A stretch of 63,377 bases of DNA, counting the filler, from Halocafeteria seosinensis (Eukaryota), in NCBI GenBank assembly GCA_001687465.1. It is 7 parts of 7 records of this genome, joined end to end, with 100 filler letters (N's around TTAATTAATTAA, not from the genome) between each part and the next. Parts side by side here need not be neighbours in the genome. Positions count along the whole stretch, not along the records: positions 1,141 to 23,713 come from LVLI01000008.1; 6 more parts are not named here. One strand, written 5' to 3'. Both the position numbers and the translations under genes were made by a program. Below the pieces are notes generated by a model. The model was not told where the DNA came from and did not search any database. It worked only from the letters and a program-made list of their open reading frames with translations. Shown one piece after another: positions 11,600-32,619 of the stretch (its first letter is position 1; each line of letters begins with the position of its first letter).

Positions 11600-12335
11600 G
11601 GATATATATGGGGTACATACTGTATACTGTCGATACCAGAAATAAGGGCGAAAACTTTCGCTCTTATTTTTGCCATCTGTGTACAAGCACTGTATAGAAA
11701 TTGAACAGCACGACCAATGTATGGCGACATTTGATGGCCCATAGTGGATGGGAGAATGCTCTCGAGCATCGGAAGGAAAGAAGATCGAAGCAGCAACCTA
11801 GTTTGTTGCACCACACAACGTCTATAGGTGGAATCAAAAGACAAAAGAAGGACGATTGATAGAATAGTAACATTCATCGTTGATGAGAGTATGGCCTTCC
11901 GAGTTGTTGATACTCAGTCATTCAAGAGGATGCTGGAGAGCGGCGCTGGCATAGTGCCTGCTGCATGCTCAGCGGATTCCTTACTCTCCGGGAAAACATG
12001 GTTAGCGTTCTCCGACACGCTCATTCGGAGGATATGTCTGTTTCTGACGTGACAAGCAAACTACAAGCGCTTCGAAAGCGCCAGGCTGATATTCTCGCAG
12101 GTATCCATTATGCATCGATACGCCTGGAACGACAAGGAGACTGTACACTTCCTGAGGTTGTGTTGGTAGGAATGAAACTCTTCAACGGAGAATTGAAAGT
12201 CCGTCAAGACGACACAAATTCCAGTAAAGATTTTAAGAAAAGAGCGCGGGAAGGGTTGTCCACTAGACTTAAACAACACAACATGTTCCTTTGCTACGTC
12301 GTCTGCCTTCTGGACCCACGTTTCTACGCCACCCC
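11600..12335 (+). pseudogene. Decayed hAT transposase fragments
   Basis: BED-finger tail TTNVWRHLMAH (~11710-11742), FIVDESMAFRVVDTQSFKRML and CLLDPRFY, in broken frames. Confidence 0.7.
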
Positions 12336-14279
12336 TCATCCAACAATTTCCAGCTTGACTCTGCTTCAACTCCCGCATGACTAAACTTTAACTCTTGGAT
12401 CACCAGGAGTTGTACCGCAAGTGTCAGCGCGTCTCTTATTCTCGTGACAGCATCAATACGGCGTAAGTGGCAAGGTGTCCACTCTTCAGCCGTCACCTTT
12501 ACCAGAGGATGCTTCCACTCCAATTTCTGTACCATAACAAACTGAGTTTGAGCGTCGTATTCCCTAAGTTCTTCATAACCACGGTAAAGTGCCTGCATTT
12601 GACGCCATGTCCTATCAATCAGAATGGAAAGTTCCGCAATATACTCTTTCTGAATGCTCAGCCTCTTTACAGTTCCCGAAGGCAAATGAGCAACCCCTCG
12701 GATGCTACTGGAGATGATCTCGTATTTATGTTCCAAAAATGCTGGTGTGCTCAGCCCCAAGATAACGTTTTTTTCATTTGCTTCCCCCGAGCAGCACTTT
12801 TGCACTGACAGCAATCCTAGCTCAAAATATAAACGAAGTCCAACTGTATGACGAGCTTCAGGTTGACATTCGAAGTAAGTCTCGTGATTGAGAATCTTCT
12901 TAAGATCGCCAGCAGTAAGGGAGCCTCCTCCCAAATACATTAAAGATTCGGTCCGGGATTCCTTTTCCTTGGTCTTAATAAATCTCTTGATCACGTCTCC
13001 ATAGTTAAGTCGACATTTCTCCAGGAATGATTCCACACCTGGTCTATTTAGGTCCCCTTCCAACTCGAACAAAAAATAATAAATATCAAACGGATTATAC
13101 AAGTCGCTCACATCTTTGACATCGTCCACCGCGAAACAAAAGCCATTGTAATGTTTTTTCAGATAGTAACACATAATATTCAATGGTTCCTCGTCTTCCA
13201 ACTCTGCCGCCAACTGTGCCAATTTTTTAGGTTTGCTCGTACAGAACTTATCAATGACATTAAACTTGTTATCCATCCTATCGTACAAGTGTTCAAACAT
13301 CCGTCTTATTTCAGCCTTTGTTACGCCTACTAATCCGTGGTAGTGCTTATGGCGCATAGCGTCCTCAATATCCATTCTTGATAAACCCGTACCACTTATG
13401 CGTAGAAGCGACACCGTTACGATGCGAAATAGATTTTCTTGACTATGTTTGATACAATTTCCAAAGCTGCTTAACACTTGAAGAAGTTTAGTCATTTGCT
13501 GCTTTGTTGAACCATCAGTCAATTCGTCGAGGGCCAAATCCCTGGAAGGCTTGTCAAATTCGTCAATCAACAAGATGGGCTGAGGATCCACATATTCTTT
13601 TACGTCATCATCGAGCTGCCCCGCAACATTTGTCCACAATCGAGTTACACGATGTAGGCCCCGTTCGAGTAGCAATACAGGATCGTCGTTTGAAATATCC
13701 GTCAAGTCTACCCCTTCGTCGGCGAACACAAGTCTAACATGACTTGGCAATACCTCGACAGAGTTAACATGTCCCAACGAGATACGGATCACCGGATGTA
13801 TAGGCGCGCGCAAAAACTGATCCCCTTTTTCCAAAGAGTGAAGTCGAGTTAAAAACTTCAAATATTGCTTTTCATCCTTTCCCCAACAAGCGGAGAGTGC
13901 TGACTTGATAAATGATAACAATGTTGTTTTCCCAAACCTTTGCGGGAAAATTACTGAAAAAGCCTTGCAAAGATCATCTAGGAGTATCCTCGCATACTCA
14001 GCTGACTTATCAATGAATAGTCCCTCGGAAATCATTTCAAAAGCATCGCCCTGAGAGCTTCTCGTATGGGTATAACAAAAATATCCCGATGTGGTTCCGT
14101 TAAGTGCGTTACGTCGAGCGCGAGTGATCTTTTCTAACCTTTCTGCCGTTACATTGGTAACTTCAATGCCGACACCTGCCACCAGTTACACCCTAGTTAC
14201 ATCTTGTAGAGATTTCGGAATTTGATTTTCAGTGCTTACTTACCTGTACCGCCTCCAGTATTCGGAGCTACGCGCCCTC
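12269..14279 (-). CDS. Crinkler-like AAA-ATPase + PD-(D/E)xK nuclease gene; 5' exons missing, 3' end overlapped by hAT sequence
   Basis: Walker A-like PQRFGKTT, Walker B ILLIDEFDKP, YNGFCF, REYDAQ..RIDAV..IQELK. Microexon 14244-14279, GT-AG intron 14176-14243, main exon from 14175. Confidence 0.75.
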
Positions 14280-14391
14280 CTGCAAACACAAACGCAAAAT
14301 AAGGGAAGTAGTGCAATTTTCTCCTCTAGACAAATCCACAGCCAACAATACGGACAAGTAACCAAAGCACAAAGATGGTTTCTTCCGTAGA

Positions 14392-14939
14392 TAATCAGTT
14401 ATTCTAAACGTGAAATGGTATCCTTGACTAGGGGTTTTGGTCTTTAGAGTATCTAGATTGTAAGTTTCATAAAACTCTACAAATTTTGGGTATGTTTCCT
14501 CATCGTAGATATGGTCTAAATCAACAGTAATAAATTTACTCTTATCCATAACCATTCCGTAGTTTATTTTTGGATTTTCCTTTATGCCTTTCAATACGTC
14601 CTTGGTTCTACGCTTTGTTTTTTCCCTATCCGTAACCTTTTCCCATCCATTTTTCGAAGGTCTTTTCAGTCCTTCATATAATGGAATTAGGTCAAAAAAC
14701 TTGCTCATTTTCTTTGCTTGTTTGTATTTCAAATTATCAGCTTTGGTCGCCATCTTATCTATACTCTCCTTATAGTGCTCAGTCTTTAAGCCATTAGGGG
14801 GTTGGTTCATCAAAGATTTACTAAATTTGTTATCTTTATCCATCTTTTCTGTTGGTTCTTCCTCTATACTCTTCCTATATCGCCTAGTCCTTAAGCCATT
14901 AGGGGGGTCATTGTTAATTTCTATATTCTCTCCAGTCAT
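14392..14939 (-). pseudogene. N-terminal primase-polymerase (Prim-Pol) part of a primase-helicase, truncated at the host junction
   Basis: NYGMV..FITVDLD..KTKTPSQGYHFTF motifs. The ORF tail LRKKPSLCFGY.. is host intron sequence that also occurs at 39445+. Confidence 0.8.
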
Positions 14940-16192
14940 TGTTATGATTATATAAAAACTATATATAAAAATTATTTCCATTGAAATGCGCGTTTAAAAT
15001 TCACTATCGCTTAAAACAGTAATTCATTAGGTAGCTGTATTACTTTTATGGATTTTATAGTGGACCCATTTTGGACATACAGTTAATTGTATATCCATTA
15101 TGGGCACAGTTAAAAACAGTAAAAATAATTTGAAGTGTTCTTGTGAAGTTGAGGTATTCATACACTAAATAAAAAAGCTGTTTTTGTAGTCAAAACTACT
15201 CCTATAAAGCCGTAAAACATATCGTTATAATCACTGTTTCAAGACGCATCTACTCATTTTATTCATTTATGGAGTTGATAGAATAACAAAAGCCCGACCA
15301 TCTATCCCGACCACTACCCGCACCCAAAGCTTTATGGTAGGGAGGGAAGCTCCAAAGGGGAACTCAAGGGGCAAGTAGAATGGCGGGATATATTCACTCA
15401 TTTTATTCTTCTTATCACTCTAAAACACTTGTGATATGGTTGATTAAACATTGCTGGTTTTGATTGTGTGATTGGTTTTCTAGATAAGACGGACTTTTGG
15501 AAGTTATGGACCTATAGTCCTACAGGGGAAGGAGGGAAAACTACAAAAAAGGTAAGGGAGGGCTGAGATGGAACAGACGGAGAATTTACGGATATGCTTT
15601 ACTATCGTAGCCATCCATTGAGGCTGAAACAATGTTGATAAGATAGAGAATGAAAAATAGACTAGGATGATATGGTTCGTTTTCAAATTACTCATTGTTT
15701 TTATCCCTTTACAGACGTTTAAAGGGGGCTTTGAGAGGCTCTAGGACGGGAAATCCTAGAGGGATGTAAACAACAAAAAAGGTGAGGGATAGCAGACCGG
15801 ATGATTGGAGGCCTTGAAATGGTGATTTTCTAGATGGTAGGTATGATGCATATGTATGGAAACAGCGGAGAATATCCTTTGTAATGGCCTAGTTGGCGTT
15901 TGTATTGGTGAAGTGTGAGTGGAGTAAATTGGGATTTTCTATACGGTGGGGAGGGCCGGTATGGATGGGTTATGGTGCGGTGCTTCTACAGTGCCCATTT
16001 ATGGCTCATATACCTGCTTTGATACCGTGGTGTGATGAAAACTACATTAACAATGCTTATAACTAGCTGCTGGGAAGGAATGGGGAGCTTTTGAGGTGAT
16101 GGTGTGAATTGAGGAAGTTGACGTGAATTCTACGTGAATTTGTAGAACGGCTTAAAGACTGGGGGATATACCAAGAGTATAGAGAAATAATA

Positions 16193-16810
16193 ATGAACTA
16201 CCAAATGAAAACCCATATACGCGAATTAATGGAACTGCTGGATGAAAATCAAGGAGAGATACCAAATGGTTTTTATTTATCCTGTGCGAACAAGTTGAGA
16301 GATTTATTTAACGAGAGTGATAGTGATTATGGAAGTGATACAAGCAGTGATTATGAAAGTGATACAAGCAGTGATATTGATAGTGTGGATGAAGAAGATG
16401 ATATGGATAGTGTGGATGAAGAAGAAGATGATATGGATAGTGTGGATGAAGAAGAGGAAATAATTGAAAGAAGGCCGGTAGGAAGACCGAACTTGCCTGA
16501 TTTAGAACGGTCGTATAATTGGATAGTCAAGTATAAAATGCTGGACAATAATATTATTAAGAAATTGAGGTTAGTTGAGGAACCATCCATAGAATACGAA
16601 ATGGTACCAATGTTAGTAGAAAAAGTTGATAGAAAGAACCATCAACACGCTTACCGTTCCTATGGTATTGATGATAGCGAATTAGAAACTTTATTTGACA
16701 AATTAAAAACATTTCACACGAAAATTCAGGACAAAGATATGATTGTTGAAGAGGATGAAAATAATGAGGATGAAACAAGCGAAGAAGGGGCTCAAGCCTG
16801 TCCCGTCTGA
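16193..16810 (+). CDS. Virophage hypothetical protein with acidic repeats
   Basis: 205-aa ORF with DSVDEEE repeats; C-terminal half nearly identical to ORF 33525-34043. Confidence 0.75.
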   Translation: MNYQMKTHIRELMELLDENQGEIPNGFYLSCANKLRDLFNESDSDYGSDTSSDYESDTSSDIDSVDEEDDMDSVDEEEDDMDSVDEEEEIIERRPVGRPNLPDLERSYNWIVKYKMLDNNIIKKLRLVEEPSIEYEMVPMLVEKVDRKNHQHAYRSYGIDDSELETLFDKLKTFHTKIQDKDMIVEEDENNEDETSEEGAQACPV

Positions 16811-18187
16811 AATATAAATCAAAAAATTAGTTCTAAATAAGCACTTGCGATGCTCCTTTGGTTTTTTTAGCGATTAATATATTTTTCTAGCGATTAATAT
16901 ATATATAATTATTATATGGTGAAGAATTTAGAAAAGGTAATCAAAGAGTTTTTAAAACAGAATCAGAAAGGGAAGAAAAAGAACAAAGGGAAGAAAAAGA
17001 ACGAACCAAAGAAAGAAAAGAAAGAAGAGGAACCAAAAGTAGAAGTGGAAGAAGAAATTAAAGAGGAAAACCCCCAGCAATCTGACACTAAAATTGATAT
17101 TCCTAATGATACATCCTTGCCTAGTTCAACTAAGATATCAAAGATACCTTCTGATGTTACATATTTTCAAGTTTGTACCGCGTCTTATGTAGAACATAAG
17201 AAAAGACCTAGTCTTATTAACAGATTCTGGCAATATATACCAAGTAGTTCAACGGATACCGTAGCAGTCTATATAGACAAACTAAATAAGGTGATGTTAG
17301 TTGCTTATCGTGGGACAGTCGTAACTAGTCCAAATGATTTACAAGCTGATTCAAAGATTGCTTTTAACCGTTTAAGTGAAACAACTAGATTCCAGAATGA
17401 CTTTAAGACGACTGGAACTTTGCTTGAGGAGTTTTCACCTGAAGATTTTAGTTATTTTTTCACTGGTCATAGTTTGGGAAACGCGATTCAACTGGAAATG
17501 AGCCGTAAATTCAATGTTGTTAGTGGAGGAAGAGGATATAATGGTGCTTTACAACCACGAGATATTGTTCAAACTCCTAAAAAGTTTAACTTTTGGTACA
17601 TCAAAGGTGACCCCTTATTTTCTCTTTCAGGACGATTTCTAACTAGGAATTTGTTTGTTTTCCCTCAAGTAACTAAAGGAGCTTTGGGAAATCATAGTTT
17701 AGAGAATTTCCAAGGTTTAACCAAATCTGATGCGATTAAGTCGGGAGGTAGTAAGCGAAATATTAAAAAACTTCCAACAAAGGCTGAACTTGTTAAGTTA
17801 GGATTAGCAAAGAAAGGCGATAAGAACGTAACAGTTGGAGGTAGTAGTATTCCGAAAGTTGTCGTTGATTTCTACAATGAATTGGAGAAAGAATTGTTGA
17901 ACTAAATTATTTTAATTCTTTTGAAAGAGTTAAAATAAGTTATTATGCTGTTACGTCCGCAAAACTGTTAGATACCAGCTTATATAAGTTATTACCGTCA
18001 GCTGATATATGTTCAGATGTAAGGTTATATATGGATACGTTCCCTGAAGCAAAAGCACTTACTGTATTATGAAGTTCAAACCCGTAAGCGTTCTGTTGCC
18101 CTTGTACTCCATTGCTACTGAATATACAGGAGTTAATAGTTAGAATAGGGCTATTTGGGTTAGCTTCTTCAAACTGAATTCTCATTC
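16489..18187 (+). repeat. ~1.7-kb direct duplicate of 33719-35411
   Basis: Both copies start at GAACTTGCCTGATTTAGAACGG and run through the lipase to the beta-helix gene 3' end, with SNPs and small indels. Confidence 0.95.
16916..17905 (+). CDS. Class 3 lipase-like alpha/beta hydrolase
   Basis: VAYRGT, FTGHSLG nucleophile elbow, GDP, NHSL. Confidence 0.88.
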   Translation: MVKNLEKVIKEFLKQNQKGKKKNKGKKKNEPKKEKKEEEPKVEVEEEIKEENPQQSDTKIDIPNDTSLPSSTKISKIPSDVTYFQVCTASYVEHKKRPSLINRFWQYIPSSSTDTVAVYIDKLNKVMLVAYRGTVVTSPNDLQADSKIAFNRLSETTRFQNDFKTTGTLLEEFSPEDFSYFFTGHSLGNAIQLEMSRKFNVVSGGRGYNGALQPRDIVQTPKKFNFWYIKGDPLFSLSGRFLTRNLFVFPQVTKGALGNHSLENFQGLTKSDAIKSGGSKRNIKKLPTKAELVKLGLAKKGDKNVTVGGSSIPKVVVDFYNELEKELLN

Positions 18188-19427
18188 CCGATTTTTTAGC
18201 GTGTCTACATACAACCCCTACAAAATTAAAGACCGATAAGTTCCCCTTTCCTCCAATGTCAATACAATACTCACCCTTGTTATCGTCACTTATTGGTTCA
18301 AAACTAATTCTGGCATTTTTTATGCTGACAGAGAAATTAGCATTGAAAGCAACATCATATTGTTTATCTTGGAGTTTGTCAAGTGACATATCTGAAAAGT
18401 AGTTTATATTTTCCCGAGAAGGATTAGCACTTGGTTCATAGAGTACATCTTGAAAGTTGTTCATTCCTGTAAGGTTTGAAAAGCTATTTCCTCTACTAAA
18501 AGCCTGAATAGATAGACCGGTAGTACAGTTCTCAAGATGTATACGATTGAAAACATTATCGTGGCTACCATCAGCACTAGCTCCACTAGCATGGGTAAGG
18601 TATACCCCCGTCTTCGTTTCAGTTGAGGTAGCTAGAATAGTTACATTTTCAATTAGGTTATTATCTGAACCACGAATTACTAAAGCCCCGTTATCATCAC
18701 TACCGTTTAAATTACAATCTTGAAACCGACAGTTTCGTAGAGTTGTATAACTCCCTTGTAACTGAATACCAACATTACACTGGCTAAACATTAGTCCGTT
18801 ATATACTGGCATCGTTACTTTAGTACCTGTTATATTAAGACCCATATTACATCCTACACAGAAAATGTCATTACTACGAAACAATGAGTTATTGGTAAAT
18901 TCAGCTCCAATATCGGCATTCACAAGATGTATATTTTCTACAACAACCGAACTACAGGTAGAAACTATAAGCCCACGGTCATTTGCTGGACTACCACGAG
19001 TTACCCATTGGTTGTCAACAAATAAATCACGAATTGCTATATTATCTTTATTATCATCGGCGTGTATTGTCCTAATAGCCGTAGTAAGATTAGCATTTAC
19101 TTCTAAAATAGTATTCCTGCTAGATGAGCCACGAAATGAAATTCCACTTAATAAGTTAATTGCCACATTTCCATTGTTGGTACTACCTCCGTCAATAAAG
19201 AATTTCCCACTAGTAAGCCGTATAACATCCCCATCTTGAGCCTGATTTATAGCATCTTGAATTACGTTTTGGTCGTTTGCCCCAAGACAGACAAAATTAG
19301 CACTAGCTTTAACGTCTTCTGGAGCTTGCGAAGATGCTATAAGTGTGGTGAAACTGTCCATTTCGGTTTCATATAGGTATTTCCTCATAATTTTTTGATT
19401 GGAATCTAGAATTTGACTGACTGACAT
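17943..19427 (-). CDS. Right-handed beta-helix (pectate-lyase-like) fibre/spike protein
   Basis: DQNVIQDAINQA..GDVIRLTSGKF..ISFRGS start typical of tail-spike beta-helices; Asn/Gly-rich repeats. Confidence 0.75.
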   Translation of the reverse strand: MSVSQILDSNQKIMRKYLYETEMDSFTTLIASSQAPEDVKASANFVCLGANDQNVIQDAINQAQDGDVIRLTSGKFFIDGGSTNNGNVAINLLSGISFRGSSSRNTILEVNANLTTAIRTIHADDNKDNIAIRDLFVDNQWVTRGSPANDRGLIVSTCSSVVVENIHLVNADIGAEFTNNSLFRSNDIFCVGCNMGLNITGTKVTMPVYNGLMFSQCNVGIQLQGSYTTLRNCRFQDCNLNGSDDNGALVIRGSDNNLIENVTILATSTETKTGVYLTHASGASADGSHDNVFNRIHLENCTTGLSIQAFSRGNSFSNLTGMNNFQDVLYEPSANPSRENINYFSDMSLDKLQDKQYDVAFNANFSVSIKNARISFEPISDDNKGEYCIDIGGKGNLSVFNFVGVVCRHAKKSGMRIQFEEANPNSPILTINSCIFSSNGVQGQQNAYGFELHNTVSAFASGNVSIYNLTSEHISADGNNLYKLVSNSFADVTA

Positions 19428-19484
19428 ATCTTTTTCTCTATATATTCATCAGAATGTTTTTTATATAAGTGAATTAATATAGAG

Positions 19485-21023
19485 ATGAATATTGAGCCAA
19501 TAGTTTTTCCACATCCTCCAGCTTTACCAGACTCGTTTAAACAACCAGAATATAAATTCATTTCAAGCAATAATTCGCTTCTTCAGTCTCCCAGTCCAAA
19601 GCATTTTAGCAATCAAAACCCTTTGGCTGAAGCAGGAGCCAATTTAGCAGTGAATCAGATTAGAGCAAGACAAGTTCAAGAAGCAATGCTTAAAGGTGGT
19701 GCTGATTCAGGTAAAATAAGTCCACAAGAACGATTACGTCTCATAAGACGTAACATTGAAGTATTTAAGGGGGATGCTGACCCACAACCCCTATTAAATG
19801 AAGAATCTGTACCTTTAAATGAGTCTCAAGGTGAAATAATCCAAATGAAACAGCTTCTTCAAGAGTTGATAGCTCAATTGAGCAACACAGGAACCCGTAG
19901 TTTGTCTAATATCAAAACAGAAAATATTCAGAGAATCTTTACTCTTCTGTCTGAAAATGGATTGAAAATATCTATGAGGGAACTTGAGAAACTAAGAAGT
20001 CTAAGTGAATCGTTAATAAGCCGAATCTTATTAGATGCTAAGAATTCTCAACTAGCAACGTCAAACAAGCCTAAGTTCAGATTAATTTTAATGTTTTATA
20101 TGCTGGTACTAACGCTAATTAGAACAGAGAATAACACGAAGACGGATAGAAAACGAATAGTTTCAGTCTTTATTCAGAATCTAGTAGAAAGCAACCTTGG
20201 ACAATTAGCAACCGAATTTGGTAATATGCTTCAGCATTCTAGGCTAAGTAATGAGACCGAGCAAATAATTACAAGTCTATCATCATCAGACGAACCGAAA
20301 AAACAGAAAAAAGAACCGAAGAAAAAGAAAGAAGACACTCCGGTTAGAGAGATAACTTTTGAAGATGAAACATCACCTAAGACTCCTAAATTATCTAAGA
20401 AAGAGAGGGCATTAAAGAAGCTAGAGGATGGAGAACGTCTGACTAAAGCAGAGTTCAAAGACGTTACTAAAGACGACCTACAAAACCTAGCTGTAGAGCT
20501 AGGTATGGATACAGCCGGTAACAAGCAAGATATCATTAATAGAATATTAACAAGAAACCAACGAACACCCGAGAATAGTAGTTCAGCTGTACCACCAACA
20601 ACCGAAGGATTTCGTACAGCTAGAGATGGAACTGACGATGACGTGCCCCCACCATTGGAAGATGAACAGCAAGACGGCGATGGTAATGTCGTAACAGGTA
20701 GTGGAAGAGGACACCAGAACGTTCAAAATATGGTAAATTTAATTAAACAGGCTAAGAAGAAGAGACGAGCAGGTGGAGCTAAAAATCCTTTCAAAGAAAT
20801 TAAGAAAGGAATAGACTTTTTCAAGAAGCTAGGAAAGAAGGGTAATACTAAGAATAATGTAGGTAAAGACAATTTTGACGACGAAACCATTGATGGTTTA
20901 TTGCTAGCTACACCCGAGGAGAAGCGAAAACTGAAGAAACAGCAACAAAAGAGAAAAAAGAAAGATAAAGGAGGACAGAAGAAACAAGTAGCCCAAGAGA
21001 AACTAAAAAAAAAGCTTAGATAA
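19485..21023 (+). CDS. Virophage hypothetical protein, Lys-rich, with a SAP/HeH-like segment (possible core protein)
   Basis: 512-aa ORF; TKDDLQNLAVELGMDTAGNKQDIINRI resembles a SAP/HeH motif; basic C-terminus. Confidence 0.7.
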   Translation: MNIEPIVFPHPPALPDSFKQPEYKFISSNNSLLQSPSPKHFSNQNPLAEAGANLAVNQIRARQVQEAMLKGGADSGKISPQERLRLIRRNIEVFKGDADPQPLLNEESVPLNESQGEIIQMKQLLQELIAQLSNTGTRSLSNIKTENIQRIFTLLSENGLKISMRELEKLRSLSESLISRILLDAKNSQLATSNKPKFRLILMFYMLVLTLIRTENNTKTDRKRIVSVFIQNLVESNLGQLATEFGNMLQHSRLSNETEQIITSLSSSDEPKKQKKEPKKKKEDTPVREITFEDETSPKTPKLSKKERALKKLEDGERLTKAEFKDVTKDDLQNLAVELGMDTAGNKQDIINRILTRNQRTPENSSSAVPPTTEGFRTARDGTDDDVPPPLEDEQQDGDGNVVTGSGRGHQNVQNMVNLIKQAKKKRRAGGAKNPFKEIKKGIDFFKKLGKKGNTKNNVGKDNFDDETIDGLLLATPEEKRKLKKQQQKRKKKDKGGQKKQVAQEKLKKKLR

Positions 21024-21047
21024 GAATATAAACTAACAAACCGAGTA

Positions 21048-21764
21048 ATGGAGGTAGTAACGTACATTATGATATGTCTTTCAAGTATTATAGCAACCGG
21101 AGGACCTGTATTATACAAATACATACGAAAATCTCGTTGCCAGAGTCAATGTTCACATGACGGTCAGAAATGCGATTGTAAAAAAATCAGCGGATACTGT
21201 ATAAGAAGAATGAAGATAGACAAAGCTGAAATAAATAGGTTAATGAACATAGCACTGAGTGAATCTCAGTTACAGGAATATACCCCTCATAAGGTACCGA
21301 TAATTAGTTACAATCAGATTTATGATAAGACGATTCCTGCGTGGTTAAAGCCAGAGAAAGCATTGATAATGTTATATTTACAAGAAGCAAGCGTGGGGCA
21401 TTGGACGTGCTTAATAGAGCATCCAGACACGTTTGAATATTTTGATAGTTACGGACACGCACCCGACGAACCATTGACTTGGAATTCAGAAGCTAAGAAT
21501 ATTCAGCTAGGGCAACCTTCACCTTATATATTGGATAGCATCCCAACATTATCTAAGCCATTGATTTATAATGACAAAGTACTTCAATTGAAGAAGAATT
21601 GTAGTCAGACCTGCGGTAGGTACGTTTTACTGCGGGTGGTATTAAAAGACTTGACACTGGAGGAGTTCATTAACTATTTAAAGTATGTAAGAGACGAATA
21701 TGACCTGAAGAACTTTGATAGAACAGTGAGCTTTTTAACAAGTGAACTTGACGAACAACAATGA
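21048..21764 (+). CDS. Virophage maturation cysteine protease (adenain-like)
   Basis: GHWTCL, EYFDSYG, QTCGRY give His-Asp-Cys plus the oxyanion Gln. Alternative start at 21210. Confidence 0.9.
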   Translation: MEVVTYIMICLSSIIATGGPVLYKYIRKSRCQSQCSHDGQKCDCKKISGYCIRRMKIDKAEINRLMNIALSESQLQEYTPHKVPIISYNQIYDKTIPAWLKPEKALIMLYLQEASVGHWTCLIEHPDTFEYFDSYGHAPDEPLTWNSEAKNIQLGQPSPYILDSIPTLSKPLIYNDKVLQLKKNCSQTCGRYVLLRVVLKDLTLEEFINYLKYVRDEYDLKNFDRTVSFLTSELDEQQ

Positions 21765-21923
21765 ACTTCAACTAGGGGGACGGCACCTATATAGATAATA
21801 GCTTATTCCAAAGATAATGATTTTCTGGTAGACGGTGGGTTGAGCCGATGGAAGTTCAACAAGAACTCTACCAGAAAGACGGGGGTTCGCACCTCCGTAA
21901 TGAGTGTTGGTTTTTAGGGGGAT

Positions 21924-22217
21924 AACCAACCAATTAATATAATTGGTTGGTTGGTGATTCGTCAGAGAGAGTCGCTCTCAACCAACCAATTAATATAATT
22001 GGTTGGTTGGTGATTCGTGAGAGAGAAAGGGGGACTGTTAAGGGGAGACTCTAACAGCCAAGGAGGATTGCCAACCAACCAATTAATATAATTGGTTGGT
22101 TGGTGATTCGTCAGAGAGAGTCGCTCTCAACCAACCAATTAATATAATTGGTTGGTTGGTGATTCGTGAGAGAGGAAGGTGGTTGGTGATTCGTCAGATA
22201 GAGTAGCTCTCAACCAA
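21924..22217. repeat. Array of four 29-bp hairpins within 56/149-bp repeats
   Basis: AACCAACCAATTA-ATA-TAATTGGTTGGTT at 21924, 21980, 22073 and 22129, each followed by GGTGATTCGT; partial fifth unit at ~22181. Confidence 0.95.
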
Positions 22218-22292
22218 GTTGAAGTTGCCAAGTTGAACCTACGAGTGTTGGTCACCAGAAACGATGGATACACAAAGGAGGAATCCATATAG

Positions 22293-22490
22293 CCGACCAT
22301 TAGTCCTAATGATAAGGTTAAGAATTCTGAAATAACAAACTTAATGAAAGAGCAGTTGGGGTATACACCACAAAGGACAAATGCGTTACTCAAAAATCAA
22401 TATAGATTGCAGGAATTCAGGACTAAAGGGACAAGGTTTAGAACCGGTCTAAAGGTAAAAGAACAGAATGATGATATAGATAATTTTTAA
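22293..22490 (+). pseudogene. Probable C-terminal remnant of a D5-like helicase
   Basis: 66-codon open frame that begins right after a TAG with no 5' start codon: TISPNDKVKNSEI..FRTKGTRFRTGLKVK, resembling the D5 C-terminal winged helix. Confidence 0.45.
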
Positions 22491-22521
22491 ATCACGGTGG
22501 GGCAAGAAAAATATAAATTCT

Positions 22522-22767
22522 TGTCACCCCCTACATAACAAGGGTAAAAACACCTACCATATAGGGGAGTGACAATGTCAAAAAAATAGGGGGGGGTTGC
22601 TTATATAAAAAACATAATGTGGATATACTCTCTTTTAGTTTTTATATGTATATAATATTATAAATTTTTTGTCATTTTTGTCATTTTTGTCATTTTTTGG
22701 GAGAATATCCCAATTATACTGGGTGTCAGAAAATTTATTTTTTGACACCTTTTTATAATTTCTGTCA
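22522..22767. promoter_or_regulatory. Candidate replication origin: TGTCA/TGACA iterons in AT-rich DNA
   Basis: Nine TGTCA/TGACA pentamers in ~250 bp, including three tandem TTTTTGTCA and an inverted pair at 22724/22743. Confidence 0.45.
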
Positions 22768-22838
22768 CAATAGGTATAATAGAGGTTAAAAGAAATGATG
22801 TAATTAAATAATTCAGTTACCGTTTTTTATGGTTTAAA

Positions 22839-23294
22839 TTAGTAACAGTAAAACCCCTCAGGGTAATTCACTGTCCGCATAATATCCTTAAGTGATGACC
22901 AGCGAATGTTAAAGAAAACCCCAGAACTGTAACGGAGTTTATACTTCCATCCTAAAGCAAGAGCGGAAGCAATAAAAGAACCTTGAGATACACAAGGGTT
23001 ACATGTATAATTAGCATTCATCCACCATTCAACAAGATGTTTTAGACCGTAAGAATCCCATTTTTGAGTAGGGTATTTGGTTGAGGAAATATAATTATGT
23101 TGGAAGAAACGTACAACTTTGACCATTTCTGAAAGTTTTTGATATATTGATTCAGGGTGACTATCGGGTTTAGTACCATTTGCTGTTAAAGAAGGTATTT
23201 TTTCAAGAGCTTTATGGCAAGCTGTTCTAGCCCATTCTAGTTCTTCTTCAGTTGGTTCAAAAGCGGGGGGTGAAAGGTTCATTTTATTATTCAA
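22839..23294 (-). CDS. Conserved hypothetical protein (SYGLKH..VSxGxFIA motif)
   Basis: DSYGLKHLVE..CVSQGSFIASALALGW..FFNI; motif recalled from phage and mobile-element proteins. Confidence 0.6.
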   Translation of the reverse strand: MNNKMNLSPPAFEPTEEELEWARTACHKALEKIPSLTANGTKPDSHPESIYQKLSEMVKVVRFFQHNYISSTKYPTQKWDSYGLKHLVEWWMNANYTCNPCVSQGSFIASALALGWKYKLRYSSGVFFNIRWSSLKDIMRTVNYPEGFYCY

Positions 23295-23472
23295 AAATAG
23301 AAATCATTTTTTTAAGTTTATTTCTTTTATTCTTTTTAAATTTAAAACCTTTTAATCTTCTTAAAATAAAAGATATTTAAAGATACAAAGTAAAAGTGTT
23401 TCAACACAAAGTAACGAACAAAAAGAATGAATTTATTTTATACTTAAAAACTTTTTAATAGAATTGATTATA

Positions 23473-23712
23473 ATGGAAAGTATAAAAAATAAACAGGAGA
23501 TTGAAGAACGTTTAAAAATTATAAGAAAACAGTTAGTTGAAACCGATGATTTATTAAGAAAGATATATCGAAAAACTTATCTAACTCCAACTATTGATGA
23601 TGAAACTGGAGAAATAAAAAAAACATATGTCAAAAAAACAACTTTAAAATTTATGTGTATTGAACATATGTTTCACGATTTAAACTATTTAGAAGATTTA
23701 ATCGGGTTATAA
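23473..23712 (+). CDS. Small virophage hypothetical protein
   Basis: ATG 23473 to TAA 23712 in AT-rich context. Confidence 0.5.
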   Translation: MESIKNKQEIEERLKIIRKQLVETDDLLRKIYRKTYLTPTIDDETGEIKKTYVKKTTLKFMCIEHMFHDLNYLEDLIGL

Positions 23713-23824
23713 TNNNNNNNNNNNNNNNNNNNNNNNNNNNNNNNNNNNNNNNNNNNNTTAATTAATTAANNNNNNNNNNNNNNNNNNNNNNNNNNNNNNN
23801 NNNNNNNNNNNNNAAATTATTAAT

Positions 23825-24658
23825 TTGCTTTCAACAAAGAGTAGTAAGATTATAATTTGGATTCAATCAACCTATTCTGTCAATCTCCAGACGGTAACAC
23901 TAAGAGCGTTGCTAGTTTTGATTGGTGTAATGAAAGATAAGGTAAATTGTGGAGAATGTGAACAATTTTACATAGACTTTTATAAAGCAACTCAACAGAA
24001 AGACCAGACTGAACAAGTCTATCGTCAGTCTCCTGAGATTAAGCCAAAACAAATTGAAGTCTTACCTTCTTGTTTGGTACAGAAATATGACGAACTGAAC
24101 GCTAAGGAACAAGAAAAAGGGTTGGACAATTACGAAATGCTTAGACTTGTAATATTAGCATTTTATCGTCATTTACCACCTTTAAGGGGTCAAGAACTAT
24201 TTGACGCAAAGATTCATAAAGACCCTTATAATATCCCCCCTACCAATGGAAATTATATAGATTTGGTTGAGTTCAAGCTAGTCAATCGTAATCATAAAAC
24301 GCAAAGTTCACATGGAGTTCACACTGTATCATTAAATGTTCCGGAGCTTCAACAAATTATAAATCAATGGGTGGATAAAATAAATTTACAACAAGGGGAT
24401 TGGTTATTAATGAGACCAAGTAACCGTTGTAAACTAGAGTCTAAAGCAATGTTTTATTATCTCAATAAAACGACTGGGTTATCGGTCACTTATCTACGTA
24501 ATTACTATGTTTCTAAGTGGCTGACCATAAACAAGAAGAATGTTAGTGAAGGTAAGATAACACAAGACGAGTTTAAGCAACAAAGAAAGGAATTAGCAGA
24601 AACGATGGGGCACACAGTAGGGACACAGGAGACGATATATAGCAAGTTTGAGGAATAA
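23825..24658 (+). CDS. Tyrosine recombinase (5' end probably lost in the gap)
   Basis: LPPLRGQE (R), NHKT (K), TYLRNYY (R), MGHTVGTQETIY (H, Y). Confidence 0.85.
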   Translation: MLSTKSSKIIIWIQSTYSVNLQTVTLRALLVLIGVMKDKVNCGECEQFYIDFYKATQQKDQTEQVYRQSPEIKPKQIEVLPSCLVQKYDELNAKEQEKGLDNYEMLRLVILAFYRHLPPLRGQELFDAKIHKDPYNIPPTNGNYIDLVEFKLVNRNHKTQSSHGVHTVSLNVPELQQIINQWVDKINLQQGDWLLMRPSNRCKLESKAMFYYLNKTTGLSVTYLRNYYVSKWLTINKKNVSEGKITQDEFKQQRKELAETMGHTVGTQETIYSKFEE

Positions 24659-24814
24659 GGTTGACGAACAATGAACATTAAAAGTTTGTGCGCTAATAGG
24701 TATAATGAAGAATAAAAAGATAAAGGATTATGAAATAGATTTCTCTAAGATAGCCGATAAAGTTGTTAGAATTGCTCAAGTAATATATTTAAATATAATG
24801 GATTATTTGGATGA

Positions 24815-25963
24815 TTAGTTCCGCTTCCGCCTCTTGAAGTCGTCCATTAATTGCTTGAATTCATTGGGTGTGAGGTCTTCCTTGATGTTGTTTTCTGGCT
24901 CAATAGTTGCTTCACTAACGGGAAACCCTACCCATTTTACCTTAAGAAATGTCTTTCTATTTGTGGTGAACTTGTCAAGTATTCGTTCCACTCTAAAGCG
25001 AACGTCAACACGGTCTTTATTCTCAACTCTATTAATTTTTTGAAGCAAGTTTCGTCCATAGAAACCTTTAGCAATTTTTCCTGAATCTTGGTTCTTGATT
25101 CTATAAGCTACTGCTTGAGTATTCTGTTTTGGACGGTTAACTGCGACAATTTCGTACAATTCCATACTCCAATTTATAGGGTCTTTCTGAATCTTTCTCG
25201 GTTCTAAAGCTAGTCTAACAATATCTCCTTTGCTTAAGTTATCCTTATCTTGATTGAGGTTTAAAACCCTGTTTTGTCTAAGATTGGTTTTGACAAAACC
25301 TTGATTTTTGGGTTGAATAGCTTGAAGGGGTGAAAGTTCAGTACTACTATGTTTGCTAGCATTATAATTATTAACTATCTTATTTACTGTTGATTGGTCA
25401 ATGTCGGAACCCACCATTCCAGCTTTTCTTATTGCTCGTTTAAATGTTCCATTAAATCGTTCTACAATTGAATTGGATTGAGGATTTCCAGCGATTGAAA
25501 ACAGTTGCTTTATTCCTTCGGCTTTGAAAAAACTAGAAAGAATTTTATTCTTAAACTCTGAGCCATTGTCAGATAAAATAGTCCTTGGTTTCTTTGGTAA
25601 TCTGTCTAAAATATTTTCAATACCTTCTTTGACAGTTTCGGCGTTCTTATCATTAATAATTTCTACAAAAGCCATTCTAGAAAATACATCAATTATGACT
25701 AAGAAAATGAAATCACCTGAAGATGATAAATCCATTGCCATAATGTTAAAAGGAGCGTTAGCGGTCATACTTCTTGTTCCTCTAGTAGATGGGTTTAATG
25801 GTCTAGTTAATTGATATAAATATTGAGCTCTGAGCCAATCCTCAACTTTCTTTCTAGGAATTTTAAGTCCTTTGGCTTGGGTAATTTCAAAAAGTTTATC
25901 ACGACCAAAAAGATTACCCTCGTCATAATAAACTTTCTCCAATTTTTGTTCGTCAGTTACCAT
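24815..25963 (-). CDS. Retroviral-type (rve) integrase with C-terminal chromodomain, intact
   Basis: AMDL, SDNGSEF, IVERFNGT (D-D-E); FRVERILDK..KVKWVGFPVSEATIEPENNI chromodomain; Polinton/Mavirus-type architecture. Confidence 0.93.
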   Translation of the reverse strand: MVTDEQKLEKVYYDEGNLFGRDKLFEITQAKGLKIPRKKVEDWLRAQYLYQLTRPLNPSTRGTRSMTANAPFNIMAMDLSSSGDFIFLVIIDVFSRMAFVEIINDKNAETVKEGIENILDRLPKKPRTILSDNGSEFKNKILSSFFKAEGIKQLFSIAGNPQSNSIVERFNGTFKRAIRKAGMVGSDIDQSTVNKIVNNYNASKHSSTELSPLQAIQPKNQGFVKTNLRQNRVLNLNQDKDNLSKGDIVRLALEPRKIQKDPINWSMELYEIVAVNRPKQNTQAVAYRIKNQDSGKIAKGFYGRNLLQKINRVENKDRVDVRFRVERILDKFTTNRKTFLKVKWVGFPVSEATIEPENNIKEDLTPNEFKQLMDDFKRRKRN

Positions 25964-26007
25964 ATATTTTATACTAAAAGCAGTATAAAATATTTAATTA
26001 GCTAAAA

Positions 26008-26808
26008 TTAAGCGATTTCGTGAATATACAAACGTCTTTCCTCAACGTTTGACATAGCAGAACTTTCAATTCGGTCATTTGCTCCTGTATTTTTATACAA
26101 CCACATATCGGGACCTTCAACTGAATAAGCCCTTAAATGAACGGAAGAAATATCATTACTGTTCTGTAAATGTTCCAGTTTTATAGGAGCGTAGGTAAGT
26201 TTAACTGTATAATGTGTAGGGTCTTTAGCACCTTCAAAACTAGGCTTTGAAGCACTACTTCGGTCATTTCCAGTTCCTGAAAGTACGTCATCAATGGCTT
26301 CACGGGAACCGGTAGCGTGGTTTAGAAGATATAAACTTCCGGCATCATCTTGTAGCATTAGATAATCTCCTGCCTGACTGCTATTTTCTATGAGCTCAAA
26401 TTGAGTAGCGTTACTGTTAGCATCGGAACCATCTAAATCTTCATCTTGAGCATAAGCACTTACTCTATATTCTGAGCTACCAGAATCCCAAGCGTAATAA
26501 CCGTCATCATCCCCCAGAATAAAGCTTCCAGAAGGAGCCGTTATATCCACCACCAAAGCTTGAAGTAATGCTTCTAAATCTTTATTTCTACCACTATCTA
26601 TATGATTAGATTTGCTATCCACATTGTCAGCACTAGTTTGAGCTGCGGCCGCGTCATTTATTCCTTGTGTAGCGTCAGCCTGAGCTGCGGCAGCGTCATC
26701 TATCCCTTGCTGGGCTTTAGTATCAGCTTGATTAGCCAGTGATTGAGCACCTAGTGCTAAAGCATTGTTATGGAGACTGTAACCCCTCTCAACACTCGTT
26801 CCACTCAT
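26008..26808 (-). CDS. Putative fibre protein (Ala/Gln coiled-coil repeats plus a beta-rich head)
   Basis: AQQGIDDAAAAQ/ATQGINDAAAAQ repeats at the N-terminus. Confidence 0.55.
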   Translation of the reverse strand: MSGTSVERGYSLHNNALALGAQSLANQADTKAQQGIDDAAAAQADATQGINDAAAAQTSADNVDSKSNHIDSGRNKDLEALLQALVVDITAPSGSFILGDDDGYYAWDSGSSEYRVSAYAQDEDLDGSDANSNATQFELIENSSQAGDYLMLQDDAGSLYLLNHATGSREAIDDVLSGTGNDRSSASKPSFEGAKDPTHYTVKLTYAPIKLEHLQNSNDISSVHLRAYSVEGPDMWLYKNTGANDRIESSAMSNVEERRLYIHEIA

Positions 26809-26866
26809 TCTTTTGTTTTATTATATATCTTTGTAAATATAATAAAATTACTTTAGTGATATTGAT

Positions 26867-27145
26867 TTAACCACCTCCCCCTATAGTTGTTCCATCTTCA
26901 AATTCTATAATATAGGTTTCTTTAAGATAATTTACGTAAGTTTCTAGCTCTGTAACTCTGGTTTTTAACTGATTAATTTCGTCCAGTAGCGATGATACCC
27001 CTTCTCCCAACAAATCCACGATTCTTAACTGACCGTCTTGTAGTGTTAATCCACTTCCAAGTTTAATTTTTTGGGTTATTTTATCGGGATGGAAATATTT
27101 TAAATTAATTGTTTGGTCATTGTCAAGTATCTGTGATACACTCAT
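26867..27145 (-). CDS. Small putative structural protein
   Basis: N-terminus MSVSQILD shared with the beta-helix protein; KLGSGLTLQDGQL fibre-like repeat; coiled coil. Confidence 0.65.
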   Translation of the reverse strand: MSVSQILDNDQTINLKYFHPDKITQKIKLGSGLTLQDGQLRIVDLLGEGVSSLLDEINQLKTRVTELETYVNYLKETYIIEFEDGTTIGGGG

Positions 27146-27753
27146 TCCTCTATAAAGTTGTTCTGAAAAGATTTACAAATTTTGGTTTTGTGATGTCGTG
27201 CTAAGTCACTACGACGAACCGACCTGTTACAGAATTTACACTCAACCTTTCTAGATAGTTTCTCTTTATTTTCGTCGCGGTATTGTTTCTTTTTCTCCAA
27301 TATTTGTTCCTTATTATCTTCGTTGTATTGTTTCATCTTTTCCAGTATTTTTTCCCTGTTTTCTTCGTAATATTTCTTATGCCGTTCTTGTTCCTTTTCC
27401 TTATTTTCTTTGCGGTATTGCTCGTTACTTCTAGACGGTACATATTTATTCAAACTAGCTTGTAATTCTTCTAACCAATATCGTTCTCTTTTATCAAGCT
27501 CTAACTTGTTTTTACAAGGGTATTGTTCGAGCAGTATCATTTCCCAATTATCCCATCCCCCATTCTCACGGATAAACTGGTAAACGTAAAGGTTATAATC
27601 CTTGCTTTTAGGATTATAACAATCACTCTTATGTTGACTTTTTCGCTGTTTGAAATTACAGGATGAACCCACGTAACACTCTTTAATATTATTATCTTTA
27701 CATACAATCTTATAACAGATGGCTTTACTGTAATCTACCGGTTTTTTAGGCAT
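27142..27753 (-). CDS. GIY-YIG endonuclease with C-terminal Zn finger
   Basis: ICYKIVCK..CYVGSS..RKSQHK..GGWDNW..RERYWLE; CKFC..RHHKTKIC. Confidence 0.9.
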   Translation of the reverse strand: MPKKPVDYSKAICYKIVCKDNNIKECYVGSSCNFKQRKSQHKSDCYNPKSKDYNLYVYQFIRENGGWDNWEMILLEQYPCKNKLELDKRERYWLEELQASLNKYVPSRSNEQYRKENKEKEQERHKKYYEENREKILEKMKQYNEDNKEQILEKKKQYRDENKEKLSRKVECKFCNRSVRRSDLARHHKTKICKSFQNNFIEE

Positions 27754-27828
27754 CTTTATTAAATTTATTTATACTATTTAAGATATCAATTTCTTTAATA
27801 GTATAATTTAGTAATATTTAGTATTTAA

Positions 27829-29645
27829 TTACTTTAATTTGTTCAGTCCCTGACTGATGGCAAAATCTAGGACTTTCCGACCCATCTTGGAGTTCGCGGC
27901 CGATTTTACCGCGTTCTTTCCTATTTTTCCAAGGGCAGAAGCCCCGTGACTGAGAGAACTAAATACATTCTTCTTTTTACCTCCAACTCTCAGACCAATA
28001 GGCATATCTTCACCAGCAACTGGAGCATCTACGACATCTGCTTCCGTTAAGAAACCAGCAAATATTTGAGAAGTCCCGTTTTCATTATACAGTAATTCCG
28101 AGTCTAAAAAGTTCACTGCTAGCTCCACATTTGGAGGTTGGTATGCTCCGACTTGCCCAACTGAACGTTGGTCATAAGCGGTTACATGAACCTTAAAAGT
28201 TTGTCCTTCTAACAGACCACCAGCTTTTCCAACTGGTAATGTTATATCGTCCCCTAGTGTTAGAATAATTGGACAAGAAACGAGAGGTACTTTGTTACCA
28301 GATTTATCTAAACCAAATCCTCTAAATGTATTCCAAGGAATATCAATGTATTTACGAGCAATATTATACAACGCCCCTTGGTCAAACGTGATAAGTTGAC
28401 TAGTATCATTTCCTACTTGGATTGACAATCCATAAGTAGCGAAAGTGAAATCTGCTTCTTGAGGGTTCATTTGAGAATGAGGAATTCTGAGGTCAATTAC
28501 TAATTTTTGAGGGTAGATTGGCATATTATAGCTCTCACTTTCAAATCTTGTAGTATTAGGATTTTCGGTATTGCCTATAGGAGCATTGAAAGATTCTTGT
28601 AGAGGTGTAACCCTGACATTGTAACGAGTAAGTGGAACAACATTTAAAGAAGGTAAACCTTCAGCTAAATCTTCAGGCGGGTCCATAACTTGATAACGAA
28701 GTTCAGCTCCTTTAAATGGATTTGTTACTTGTTCAGGGAATCCTTCTTGAGTAATACTACGTCCATTGGCACCTACGGAAGCATTACGAGCTAATTTTAA
28801 AGTATTGACAATTGGAAGATTAAGATTCATATTAGAAACACCCCATAAACCGGTACTATCTAAACCATTAGTACCATCAAATAAGAGGGGAGAAATCCAA
28901 GGTGTTTCTTCTAAATGATACTGAACATAGATATCGTAAACTTTGTTTGCTTCGGCACTGGTAACTGGAATACCGTTAATATAATTAACATCTACTCCGT
29001 TATCTCCGGTATAAGTTCCTGGCTGAGCTACAGTACCACCTTGTAGGGGGACACCTTGAGCGTTGGTAAATGAATATGGATAGGCTCCATCTGGTACATG
29101 TTGCGTCTGTAAGCTTGTATTATCTAGACCTGCTAAAGGGGTTACGGATGTACCAATAGCGTCATTATATCGGAGATATGATAAATCAACATTATTTGTA
29201 GTATGAAAACTATTACAGCTATATCATCATCATACAACATTAAATTGAGCATTTTAAATTGTCGGGATAAGTCAATGTTTGTTTGAGCGTTGTTAATACC
29301 CATTCGTGGAGAAGCGAACATTCTATTCATAGCGTGTTCACGCAAAGCAAAACTTTCGGGAGTTAGAATAGGAATATTAGCTGTCGGTGTACCAGCAACC
29401 TGTACTCTAACGTGATAATTTAATTGAGGTATAACTACTCTCATATCACGACGGGTAATAGTTGAAACAGAATTAGGTTGCCAGTCAAATTGGAGTCCCG
29501 ATTTACTGGCTGCAGCATCCCGTTTCTTGAACATTGAATAGTTCCTGACTGAACCCTTAATTGAATATCGGGGCTTAACTGGTGTTGTAACAGCTGGGAA
29601 TGTCTTAACTAATTCAGGTCTAAACTTTTCTTCTAGCAAACTCAT
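27829..29645 (-). pseudogene. Virophage major capsid protein (~605 aa), split by a 1-nt frameshift near 29222
   Basis: After LYDDD a shifted frame reads YSCNSF..YNDAIGTSVTPLAG..VPDGAYP..EETPWISPLLF..GLWGVSNMNLN and joins ORF 27829-28830 without stops; C-terminal LTEADV..RVGG. Confidence 0.9.
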
Positions 29646-29678
29646 TTCTTTATATATAATTTCTCACAATATTTTAAA

Positions 29679-30632
29679 TTATATATACTTATTCTTAAAA
29701 ATTAGGTCTATAGTTCCTGTTGCTTGATTTGGTAATCTAAGAGGTCTTAGTCTTCCTGTGAATCTATCTCTATAAAAGAATTGTAAGTCTAGACTCGTCA
29801 ATGGTTGGTCAGAACCACCAGAAATAGAAAAGAACCTAGGATTATCGGGAACATAAACAAGGTTTTGCTTCCAAGAGAGAGGAGTTGATTTATCAATTGT
29901 AAATTCTGTAATAATATTTGCTCTCGTGTTATGTTGAACAAGATTTTCAGTTCCAACTTTGCTAAACCCGTATTCAACCGGTTTACTTTGTAAAGTAGGT
30001 TCAAGAGCTAATGAACCAGTAGTTGTTACAACTAAACTAGCTACAGGTGACCAATAATTACCTGCGCTTGGGGCTTCTTGAGTCACCTTAGTATACATAT
30101 TTGGATTAGCAGAAGTGCCCAAATTGACGTTATTAAGTCCGAATTTTTCAGATACAACGATTCCATAATTCCGTCCTTGGTCTTTTTTCGGAAATACGAC
30201 TGGGAAATTTTGGAACACATTATAGGAATTTTCGTTGAAATACAATGAACCATCCCAAGCTTCAGGAACATAAATAGAAAATAATTCAGTTGAAGGTTCA
30301 TAAGCAATGAATGGAGGGTCTGAATTTCCCCCAAATATTTGACTGTTAGCGTGATTGATAGCTACATTAAATAGTTCTAGAACCCAGTTGATACTAAATA
30401 TATCATAATAACTGTTCCCAATATCTGTAGGGCTAATGTCAGGTGGGTTCTCTTGTTGTTTCACATTTTGCGGTATATATTGGACTGGTTGCTGGTGAAC
30501 ATTACCTGAACTATCTTCAATCGTAATGCTGTAAATTCCTTCATCTACAGAGTTTACAGTGGTGAAAAAATGAAAAGCAGGAAGGTCGCGAGTTATACCA
30601 TCTAATGAGAATTTTTCCACACCTAATATCAT
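29679..30632 (-). CDS. Virophage penton (minor capsid) protein, probably N-terminally truncated
   Basis: LGVEKFSL..LPAF, PPFIAYEPSTELFSI, WSPVASLVVTT, LVYVP, PLTSLDLQFFYRDRFTG; directly upstream of MCP. Confidence 0.85.
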   Translation of the reverse strand: MILGVEKFSLDGITRDLPAFHFFTTVNSVDEGIYSITIEDSSGNVHQQPVQYIPQNVKQQENPPDISPTDIGNSYYDIFSINWVLELFNVAINHANSQIFGGNSDPPFIAYEPSTELFSIYVPEAWDGSLYFNENSYNVFQNFPVVFPKKDQGRNYGIVVSEKFGLNNVNLGTSANPNMYTKVTQEAPSAGNYWSPVASLVVTTTGSLALEPTLQSKPVEYGFSKVGTENLVQHNTRANIITEFTIDKSTPLSWKQNLVYVPDNPRFFSISGGSDQPLTSLDLQFFYRDRFTGRLRPLRLPNQATGTIDLIFKNKYI

Positions 30633-30634
30633 GT

Positions 30635-31183: not shown

Positions 31184-31386
31184 TTAAACTTTATAATACA
31201 TTATGTTTTAATNTTTTTAAATCTAAATTTATATAATTTAGTGAGTTTCTATTTTCATTTTTTAGCAAACACTAACTCAAATTTTAGCTAAAGGAGCTTT
31301 AAGATTCTCAAAAAAGTGAAAACAAACAGTCAAAAAATTAAATTTTAAAAATAAAAAACAAAGATATATAAAATAGAAACAAAGAT

Positions 31387-32247: not shown

Positions 32248-32274
32248 ATTACAGTTTAGCTAAACTGTAATTTA
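32245..32274. terminator. Perfect 30-bp palindrome between convergent genes (candidate 3'-end hairpin)
   Basis: TAAATTACAGTTTAG/CTAAACTGTAATTTA; similar hairpins at 17907-17938, 25964-25993, 26816-26847 and 27769-27806. Confidence 0.65.
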
Positions 32275-32284
32275 AAATTATAAA

Positions 32285-32602: not shown

Positions 32603-32619
32603 TTTGTTATTCTATACTC

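Follow-up and report, generated by a model that had tools for sequence, protein, structure and literature searches.

A virophage-host junction inside an intron of a truncated ATPase-nuclease gene in Halocafeteria seosinensis: a probable deletion scar near a chromosome end

The junction between virophage and host DNA at position 14391 of the window (the whole 63,377-nt stretch of DNA analysed, from assembly GCA_001687465.1) is best explained as a deletion scar that formed after a virus had integrated near a chromosome end. Integration, deletion and capping are reconstructed steps, and we put the probability of this reading at roughly 0.6. Taken as a whole, the locus is most likely an array of virophages near a telomere that is decaying and carries deletion junctions, and a functional toxin switch under viral control is the less likely reading. 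At each of three joints, a gene stops internally and unrelated sequence follows (virus/intron at 14391, nuclease/hAT-like sequence near 12329 and virus/telomere at 35411). The locus would provide a base-resolved example of endogenous virophage decay at chromosome tips, with an intron deletion at one end and likely telomere capping at the other.

Composition of the window

Seven contigs make up the window, separated by six spacers of 100 nt each (N44-TTAATTAATTAA-N44) at 1041, 23714, 35505, 40599, 59839 and 61985, and adjacency across any spacer is therefore unproven. GC content is ~48% in the host contigs versus ~35% for 14392-35411. For the Hid1 gene in the window, one transcript-derived protein (P0005) is identical. 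The other named matches among the 120 listed for Hid1 come from oomycetes and ochrophytes at about 41-52% identity and, by this sequence similarity, place the host among the stramenopiles. None of ten window proteins was present in the exact-match protein collection, and an NCBIfam search gave nothing above cut-off. PDB sequence searches with the MCP, the ATPase family and the hAT-like piece returned no meaningful match. The main features are listed in Table 1.

Table 1. Coordinates of the features discussed, counted along the window.
Feature	Position	Strand	Basis or remark
Decayed hAT-like transposase remnant	11602..12324	+	Stops; adjoins the cut nuclease
Last exon, AAA-ATPase_like + PD-(D/E)XK nuclease	12329..14175	-	Profile matches, homology to relatives
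68-nt intron	14176..14243	-	Inferred; similarity to paralog ends inside, at 14202
36-nt phase-1 microexon (GRVAPNTGGGT)	14244..14279	-	Inferred from splice signals
Host intron, surviving 3' part	14280..14391	-	First 73 nt one base off paralog
Virus-host junction	14391..14392	-	Last viral base 14392, first host-like base 14391; few bases uncertain
Virophage Prim-Pol/helicase gene, 5' fragment of ~120 codons	14392..14753	-	PF09250, P0001 match
GAGTATAGA, putative viral promoter motif	14758..14766	-	Chosen after viewing
Virophage part-copy 1, remainder	14982..23713	.	1.2-kb noncoding stretch, ORF, lipase-like, beta-helix, SAP and protease-like genes
1.7-kb direct repeat	16489..18187	+	96.1% identical to 33719-35411
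Virophage part-copy 2	23814..35411	.	Separate contig, GC 0.345
Telomere-type tract	35412..35504	+	TTG, two TTATGG variants, then (TTAGGG)n to contig end
Host paralog, other contig	38034..40598	+	Header exon 38034-38391, four phase-1 microexons, carries 39444-39629
Third family gene	56328..59838	+	Header exons, phase-1 microexons, AAA-ATPase_like/nuclease exon with C-terminal strands

The virus-host junction

Self-BLAST aligns 14202-14400 on the minus strand with 39629-39434 at 88.5% over 200 columns (E 7e-66), and the longest exact match is 48 nt, running from 14391/39444. The alignment covers 112 nt of intron, the 36-nt phase-1 microexon and 42 nt of the following intron. An earlier sequence-only reading had described a match of 14200-14391 (minus) with 39444-39630 (plus) spanning an intron, a GG(R)VAPNxGGGT microexon and the next intron, and both the match and its content are borne out. 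New to that description is the location of the matching stretch (39444-39629) on a different contig, beyond the telomere tract and a 100-nt spacer. The similarity is one between two host genes. It marks the breakpoint; it is not virus-host homology, nor is it what joined virus to host. An interpretation of the 200-nt match as a TIR or TSD was rejected because it consists of host intron and microexon and lies on another contig. A viral origin of the match was also rejected, given its host-like composition and a Prim-Pol match that stops before it.

The Prim-Pol domain match (PF09250) and the match to P0001 both end where host-like sequence starts. The virus-versus-host Markov score is +11.3 at 14392-14466, drops to -1.9 in the adjoining 75-nt block and reaches -22.9 in the block after it. 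The exact match, the composition switch and the end of the Prim-Pol match thus agree with the earlier claim that the host match ends at ~14391, precisely where the primase is truncated. The 73 nt beside the joint contain one difference from the paralog versus 17 in the next 115 nt (3/300 permutations). Such near-identity fits copying from a paralog during repair, gene conversion, constraint or read collapse. Weak homeology surrounds the junction at about 14400-14380. In post hoc comparisons using stand-ins for the true alleles, the upstream homeology was equalled at 4.3% of sites drawn at random from the virus (n = 3330). Among 74293 host 12-mers, 0.8% coded equally well for the next residues of P0001. 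A mild hairpin begins at the junction (z -2.5, 4/200 shuffles).

Integrase-type ends are absent, with neither TIR nor TSD present and both virus ends located inside viral ORFs. Among the 25 longest of 948 inverted-repeat pairs, no long inverted repeat pairs the virus ends, and arms do not exceed 45 nt once the N spacers are set aside. The reported lack of a TIR or TSD was therefore correct, and the evidence also supports the view that the junction, rather than being an integrase end, falls within a host intron and leaves the gene cut off from any header exon. The exact junction 28-mer has no occurrence in viral_contigs.

The junction rests on one contig of one assembly. An assembly misjoin could have crossed between family copies at the near-identical stretch and brought the wrong gene downstream, or the whole joint could be chimeric. 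The step from 1 difference in 73 nt to 17 in the next 115 and the 48-nt exact repeat would suit such a crossing, as would the fragmented state of the assembly, seen in its six spacers and scattered Ns. Difficulties in assembling the flanks of virophages have been reported (PMC8547959). Against a misjoin, the joint is located 9 kb into a 22.6-kb contig and no N occurs close to it, and a swap would leave the virus at the same point of the family intron anyway. An exact repeat of 48 nt is also shorter than ordinary sequencing reads. We consider a misjoin unlikely.

Virophage genes, part-copies and ends

The likely start of the cut primase gene is at 14753, where an ATG aligns with the start of P0001. 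Further in-frame ATGs are found upstream at 14939 and 14981. P0001 is the one primase relative found, a protein of 1044 aa with Prim-Pol and UL9-type helicase (56% match), and the similarity ends at its residue 126. The primase, packaging ATPase and MCP have no relative in viral_contigs or metagenome_contigs. The region upstream of the primase appears intact, judging by the putative promoter motif, which has further copies upstream of viral starts at 14871(-), 16175(+) and 32619(-). ATAGA, a motif chosen post hoc, lies at most 25 nt from 8 of 20 viral starts, 14753 included, versus 4.9% of AT-rich background windows. A CroV-type TCTA promoter was rejected, with occurrences at only 1 of the 20 viral starts. 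TAGA, the core of GAGTATAGA, reads on the opposite strand as TCTA, the late motif of CroV. A block of 45 nt that includes GAGTATAGA occurs twice in the primase 5' region and once more, in inverted orientation, at 16146-16190.

Part-copy 2 encodes a recombinase-like protein, an rve-chromo integrase, two GIY-YIG nucleases, MCP, penton, ATPase and a lipase-like protein, followed by a cut beta-helix gene. The MCP gene is split over two frames and matches PF22031 with 37 bits (cut-off 27) and PF21915 with 16.5 bits, below cut-off. The penton or minor capsid protein matches PF21507 (31.7 bits, cut-off 27). The packaging ATPase candidate at 31387-32247 is a P-loop protein with a weak match, PF01637 being hit below cut-off only. 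The protease-like gene at 21048-21764 has no Pfam match, and its His/Asp/Cys motifs would make it a candidate cysteine protease. The labels packaging ATPase, protease and tyrosine recombinase are putative, as they come from weak matches or motif resemblance. The two viral contigs have complementary gene content apart from the 1.7-kb overlap, and the virus is therefore likely present as two tandem part-copies. Four copies of an AT-centred palindrome at 21924-22217 (z -8.9 for the first two) may mark the boundary between part-copies, a virus terminus or an origin. With regard to an origin, the replicase relative carries an origin-binding-type helicase.

Several smaller features accompany the two part-copies. 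The ORFs 16193-16810 and 33525-34043 have a common C-terminal part of 109 aa (95%) and unrelated N-termini, and by this pattern the pair is apparently a recombination point inside a gene. A stop-interrupted frame at 22200-22490(+) may correspond to the last part of a helicase gene, with no Pfam support for a helicase in this interval. Terminal direct repeats described in PMC12747079 have a median length of 266 bp, and an assignment of the 1.7-kb repeat to that class was considered and rejected. The repeat holds genes, is bounded inside ORFs and is 96% identical between copies. Hairpins occur at viral gene 3' ends at 17903-17942 (z -4.5), 27769-27806 (z -3.0) and 32245-32274 (z -6.0). Hairpin polyadenylation signals are a feature of Mimiviridae (PMC4402537), and by analogy the hairpins might hint at the type of helper virus.

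At the far end of part-copy 2, the beta-helix gene breaks off at 35411, and the telomere tract follows directly. The tract has 15.2 copies with 94% matches in chromosome-end orientation, and it begins where the 96% repeat stops. A chromosome end was probably healed on viral DNA at 35411-35504. The viral contigs are linked by a spacer only, and the telomere may cap a different copy. The finding raises the genome-wide question of whether chromosome ends are often healed on viral DNA in such hosts.

We suggest that a stepwise process created the present arrangement. Virophages would have integrated in tandem in or beside an intron of a telomere-proximal multi-exon gene. A deletion would then have taken the left virus end together with ~88% of the primase-helicase gene. 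End-joining would have reconnected the DNA, possibly guided by short homeology, and the 73 nt may have been copied from a paralog in the process. A terminal break in the distal copy would have been capped with new telomere repeats, and the header exon could have been lost either in this step or in the preceding deletion. We infer the order of events and the role of homeology because no intact virus or host allele was found in the viral and metagenome contigs. Capture in a single step is an alternative, in which a broken viral fragment was patched into an intron break without integrase and the new end was capped by telomere repeats. Such a capture would account for both virus ends lying inside genes without TIR or TSD, and for the weak homeology and the mild hairpin starting at the junction. 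Yet the element encodes an rve integrase, its two diverged part-copies (96%) fit stepwise integration and decay, and the same host gene has an unrelated second joint near 12329. Single-step capture is thus rather improbable.

The truncated host gene and its relatives

The host gene at the junction retains a PF09820 ATPase domain in its last exon (36.9 bits, cut-off 26.1), and its Atlas feature score to bacterial AAA-ATPase_like/PDDEXK_9 clusters is 0.98. Bacterial relatives were found at 186 loci, of which 80 were kept; these yielded 67 complete ORFs, 59 of them with a scorable E-x-K. A profile from the 67 ORFs recovers the junction-gene exon at E 2e-22 in a three-sequence search. The domain make-up resembles bacterial proteins combining PF09820 and PDDEXK_9 (PF08011). 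Unlike these bacterial proteins, the gene has a eukaryotic multi-exon setting and the junction copy lacks the nuclease C-terminus. Homology to P0002 and to the gene at 57612 ends at LLDEGW (12329), and an unrelated 19-codon tail continues to a stop at 12269. E-x-K is followed by 50-77 residues in 59/59 bacterial relatives versus 19 homologous residues in the junction gene. The end of the QA helix and the following strands are missing, whereas 6/6 closer relatives keep them. A complete PD-(D/E)XK domain, with at least 50 residues after E-x-K, the Q helix and the final strands, is not found in the junction gene. The catalytic D and E-x-K residues are still present, the exon retains an open frame of 634 codons, and the splice sites of the microexon are strong. 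The open exon and strong splice sites would mean either recent damage or some use of the ATPase-nuclease gene.

The stop-ridden stretch next to the cut nuclease is likely a decayed hAT element. It shows a match to the Hermes DNA-binding domain (PF10683, E 0.028) below the Pfam cut-off and no match in the PDB sequence search. We take its BED-like and LDPRF motifs to be those of hAT transposases. The LDPRF motif, on the opposite strand, ends at 12324, five bases from the end of the nuclease homology. With a 5' cut at 14391 and a 3' cut near 12329, the host gene is therefore cut at both ends.

Three host genes of the window have a common exon plan consisting of a header, several phase-1 microexons (21-42 nt) and one large NTPase(-nuclease) exon. 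Their microexon regions are located at 14244-14279(-), 39086-39925(+) and 56914-57540(+). The paralog's microexon at 39555-39587 has 33 nt and encodes GVAPNAGGGT, and its NTPase exon, from 40015, is unrelated to the junction-gene exon. The possibility that the paralog is the lost 5' half of the junction gene was rejected, as it has its own unrelated NTPase exon. The presence of one intron-microexon block in two genes with unrelated NTPase exons suggests module shuffling at introns. The end of the shared 200 nt at 14202 apparently reflects a module swap in the following intron. Whether ATPase-nuclease genes swap modules at phase-1 introns genome-wide is a question raised by this pattern. The header exons of the two other genes have no Pfam match at E<=0.1 and no mutual alignment, and no LXLFLAK ubiquitin-like Crinkler header occurs upstream of the junction. 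The gene had been called Crinkler-like, a label that holds for the layout only, as no Crinkler header was found and the catalytic exon is of the AAA-ATPase_like/PDDEXK_9 kind.

Potential expression of the host gene by the virus

The sequence-only reading had proposed that the viral primase promoter points into a host ATPase-nuclease gene and could drive a toxin-like product. A promoter motif does survive and point into the gene, and a working toxin is unsupported. The nuclease is cut, and readthrough from the primase yields a product of 161 aa that ends at a stop at 14268-14270 inside the microexon. From the joint to 14035 there are three ATGs, each of them either intronic or in another frame. 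Two GTAAAT donors occur in the primase region, both in phase 1, and only the one at 14539 is downstream of the likely start. The viral donors score 5/9 to the consensus versus 6-9/9 for 11/11 inferred host donors. No identical or fused protein was found among longer primase forms or among ATPase proteins of 348-1110 aa. Among 43 matches in 50% representatives, none was identical or fused, and all were at most 42% identical except a 59-aa fragment at 68%. Both P0005, from a housekeeping gene, and P0127, from a family paralog in the same accession series, are transcript-derived, though such protein searches bear on expression indirectly and do not bear on infected cells.

The junction locus is likely silent. 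Mavirus, once integrated, stays silent before infection by its helper virus (10.1101/068312), and a helper giant virus firing the promoter here is predicted to produce a 161-aa truncated primase rather than the nuclease. A more far-reaching proposal would be that a giant-virus-activated virophage promoter drives a spliced fusion of primase, microexon and ATPase-nuclease, which harms the infected cell. If true, such promoter capture would constitute a eukaryotic abortive-infection switch, an antiviral suicide circuit in a protist. The surviving motif pointing into the gene, the GTAAAT donor at 14539 in the right phase, the catalytic D and E-x-K residues and the activation of integrated mavirus by its helper (10.1101/068312) could be taken as indications. 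However, the evidence runs against such a circuit. The C-terminal elements of the nuclease are missing, both viral donors are weak with one upstream of the likely start, readthrough meets the stop at 14268, and no identical or fused protein exists among the searched sets even though P0005 and P0127 are transcript-derived. The arrangement is also a single instance. A spliced toxin fusion is accordingly very improbable.

Comparison with known systems

The virophage DNA resembles the endogenous virophages reported for the bicosoecid Halocafeteria seosinensis in having low GC content, a tandem and fragmented arrangement, and transposons nearby (10.64898/2026.07.28.741278). The preprint describes virophages of 35% GC in a 47% GC stramenopile genome, with complete or partial virophage genomes at 13 chromosome ends and very low expression. 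Some carry both rve and tyrosine recombinase, and palindromes occur at termini (10.64898/2026.07.28.741278). Telomere-proximal, fragmented virophage decay is thus a pattern already described in this bicosoecid, and the junction adds detail. The preprint text, as far as available, contains no joint of telomere to a cut viral gene, no host-intron fusion and no ATPase-nuclease neighbours, and its supplement may list such ends (10.64898/2026.07.28.741278). In literature that was mostly non-subscription, no report was found in which a host nuclease is driven by a virophage promoter or in which telomere repeats have been added inside a virophage gene.

Mavirus and the EMALEs of Cafeteria burkhardae are likewise integrated virophages with an rve integrase (10.1101/068312, PMC8547959, PMC10945749). 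EMALEs have 13 exonic and 2 intronic host-gene sites, and three elements are truncated (PMC8547959). Mavirus and EMALEs have TIRs and TSDs, whereas both ends of the junction element are cut inside genes. The capsid of the junction element, unlike theirs, matches Sputnik-type profiles, its replicase combines Prim-Pol with a UL9-type helicase, and its upstream motif is ATAGA rather than TCTA.

The host gene family recalls the CR (Crinkler/RHS) proteins, which combine a variable header with an NTPase and a restriction-endonuclease fold, swap modules and occur also in free-living eukaryotes (PMC5289972). An NTPase with a C-terminal REase part is present in the family, the junction copy having a cut nuclease. 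Unlike the CR proteins described there, the genes show no LXLFLAK or ubiquitin-like header, and the junction copy is headerless with its nuclease cut. The swap point also differs, being a phase-1 intron beside Gly-rich microexons.

Other features of the window

Mobile-element sequences occur on other contigs of the window as well. A hAT dimerisation-like fragment lies on a separate contig at 40780-41193(-), with a PF05699 match below cut-off (E 0.02). A frame at 62085-63372(-), on a short contig, ends like what we take to be the start of a LINE reverse transcriptase. Another short contig encodes a PIF1-like helicase at 60070-61984(+). The host DNA at 42872-42949 forms a perfect 78-nt palindrome.
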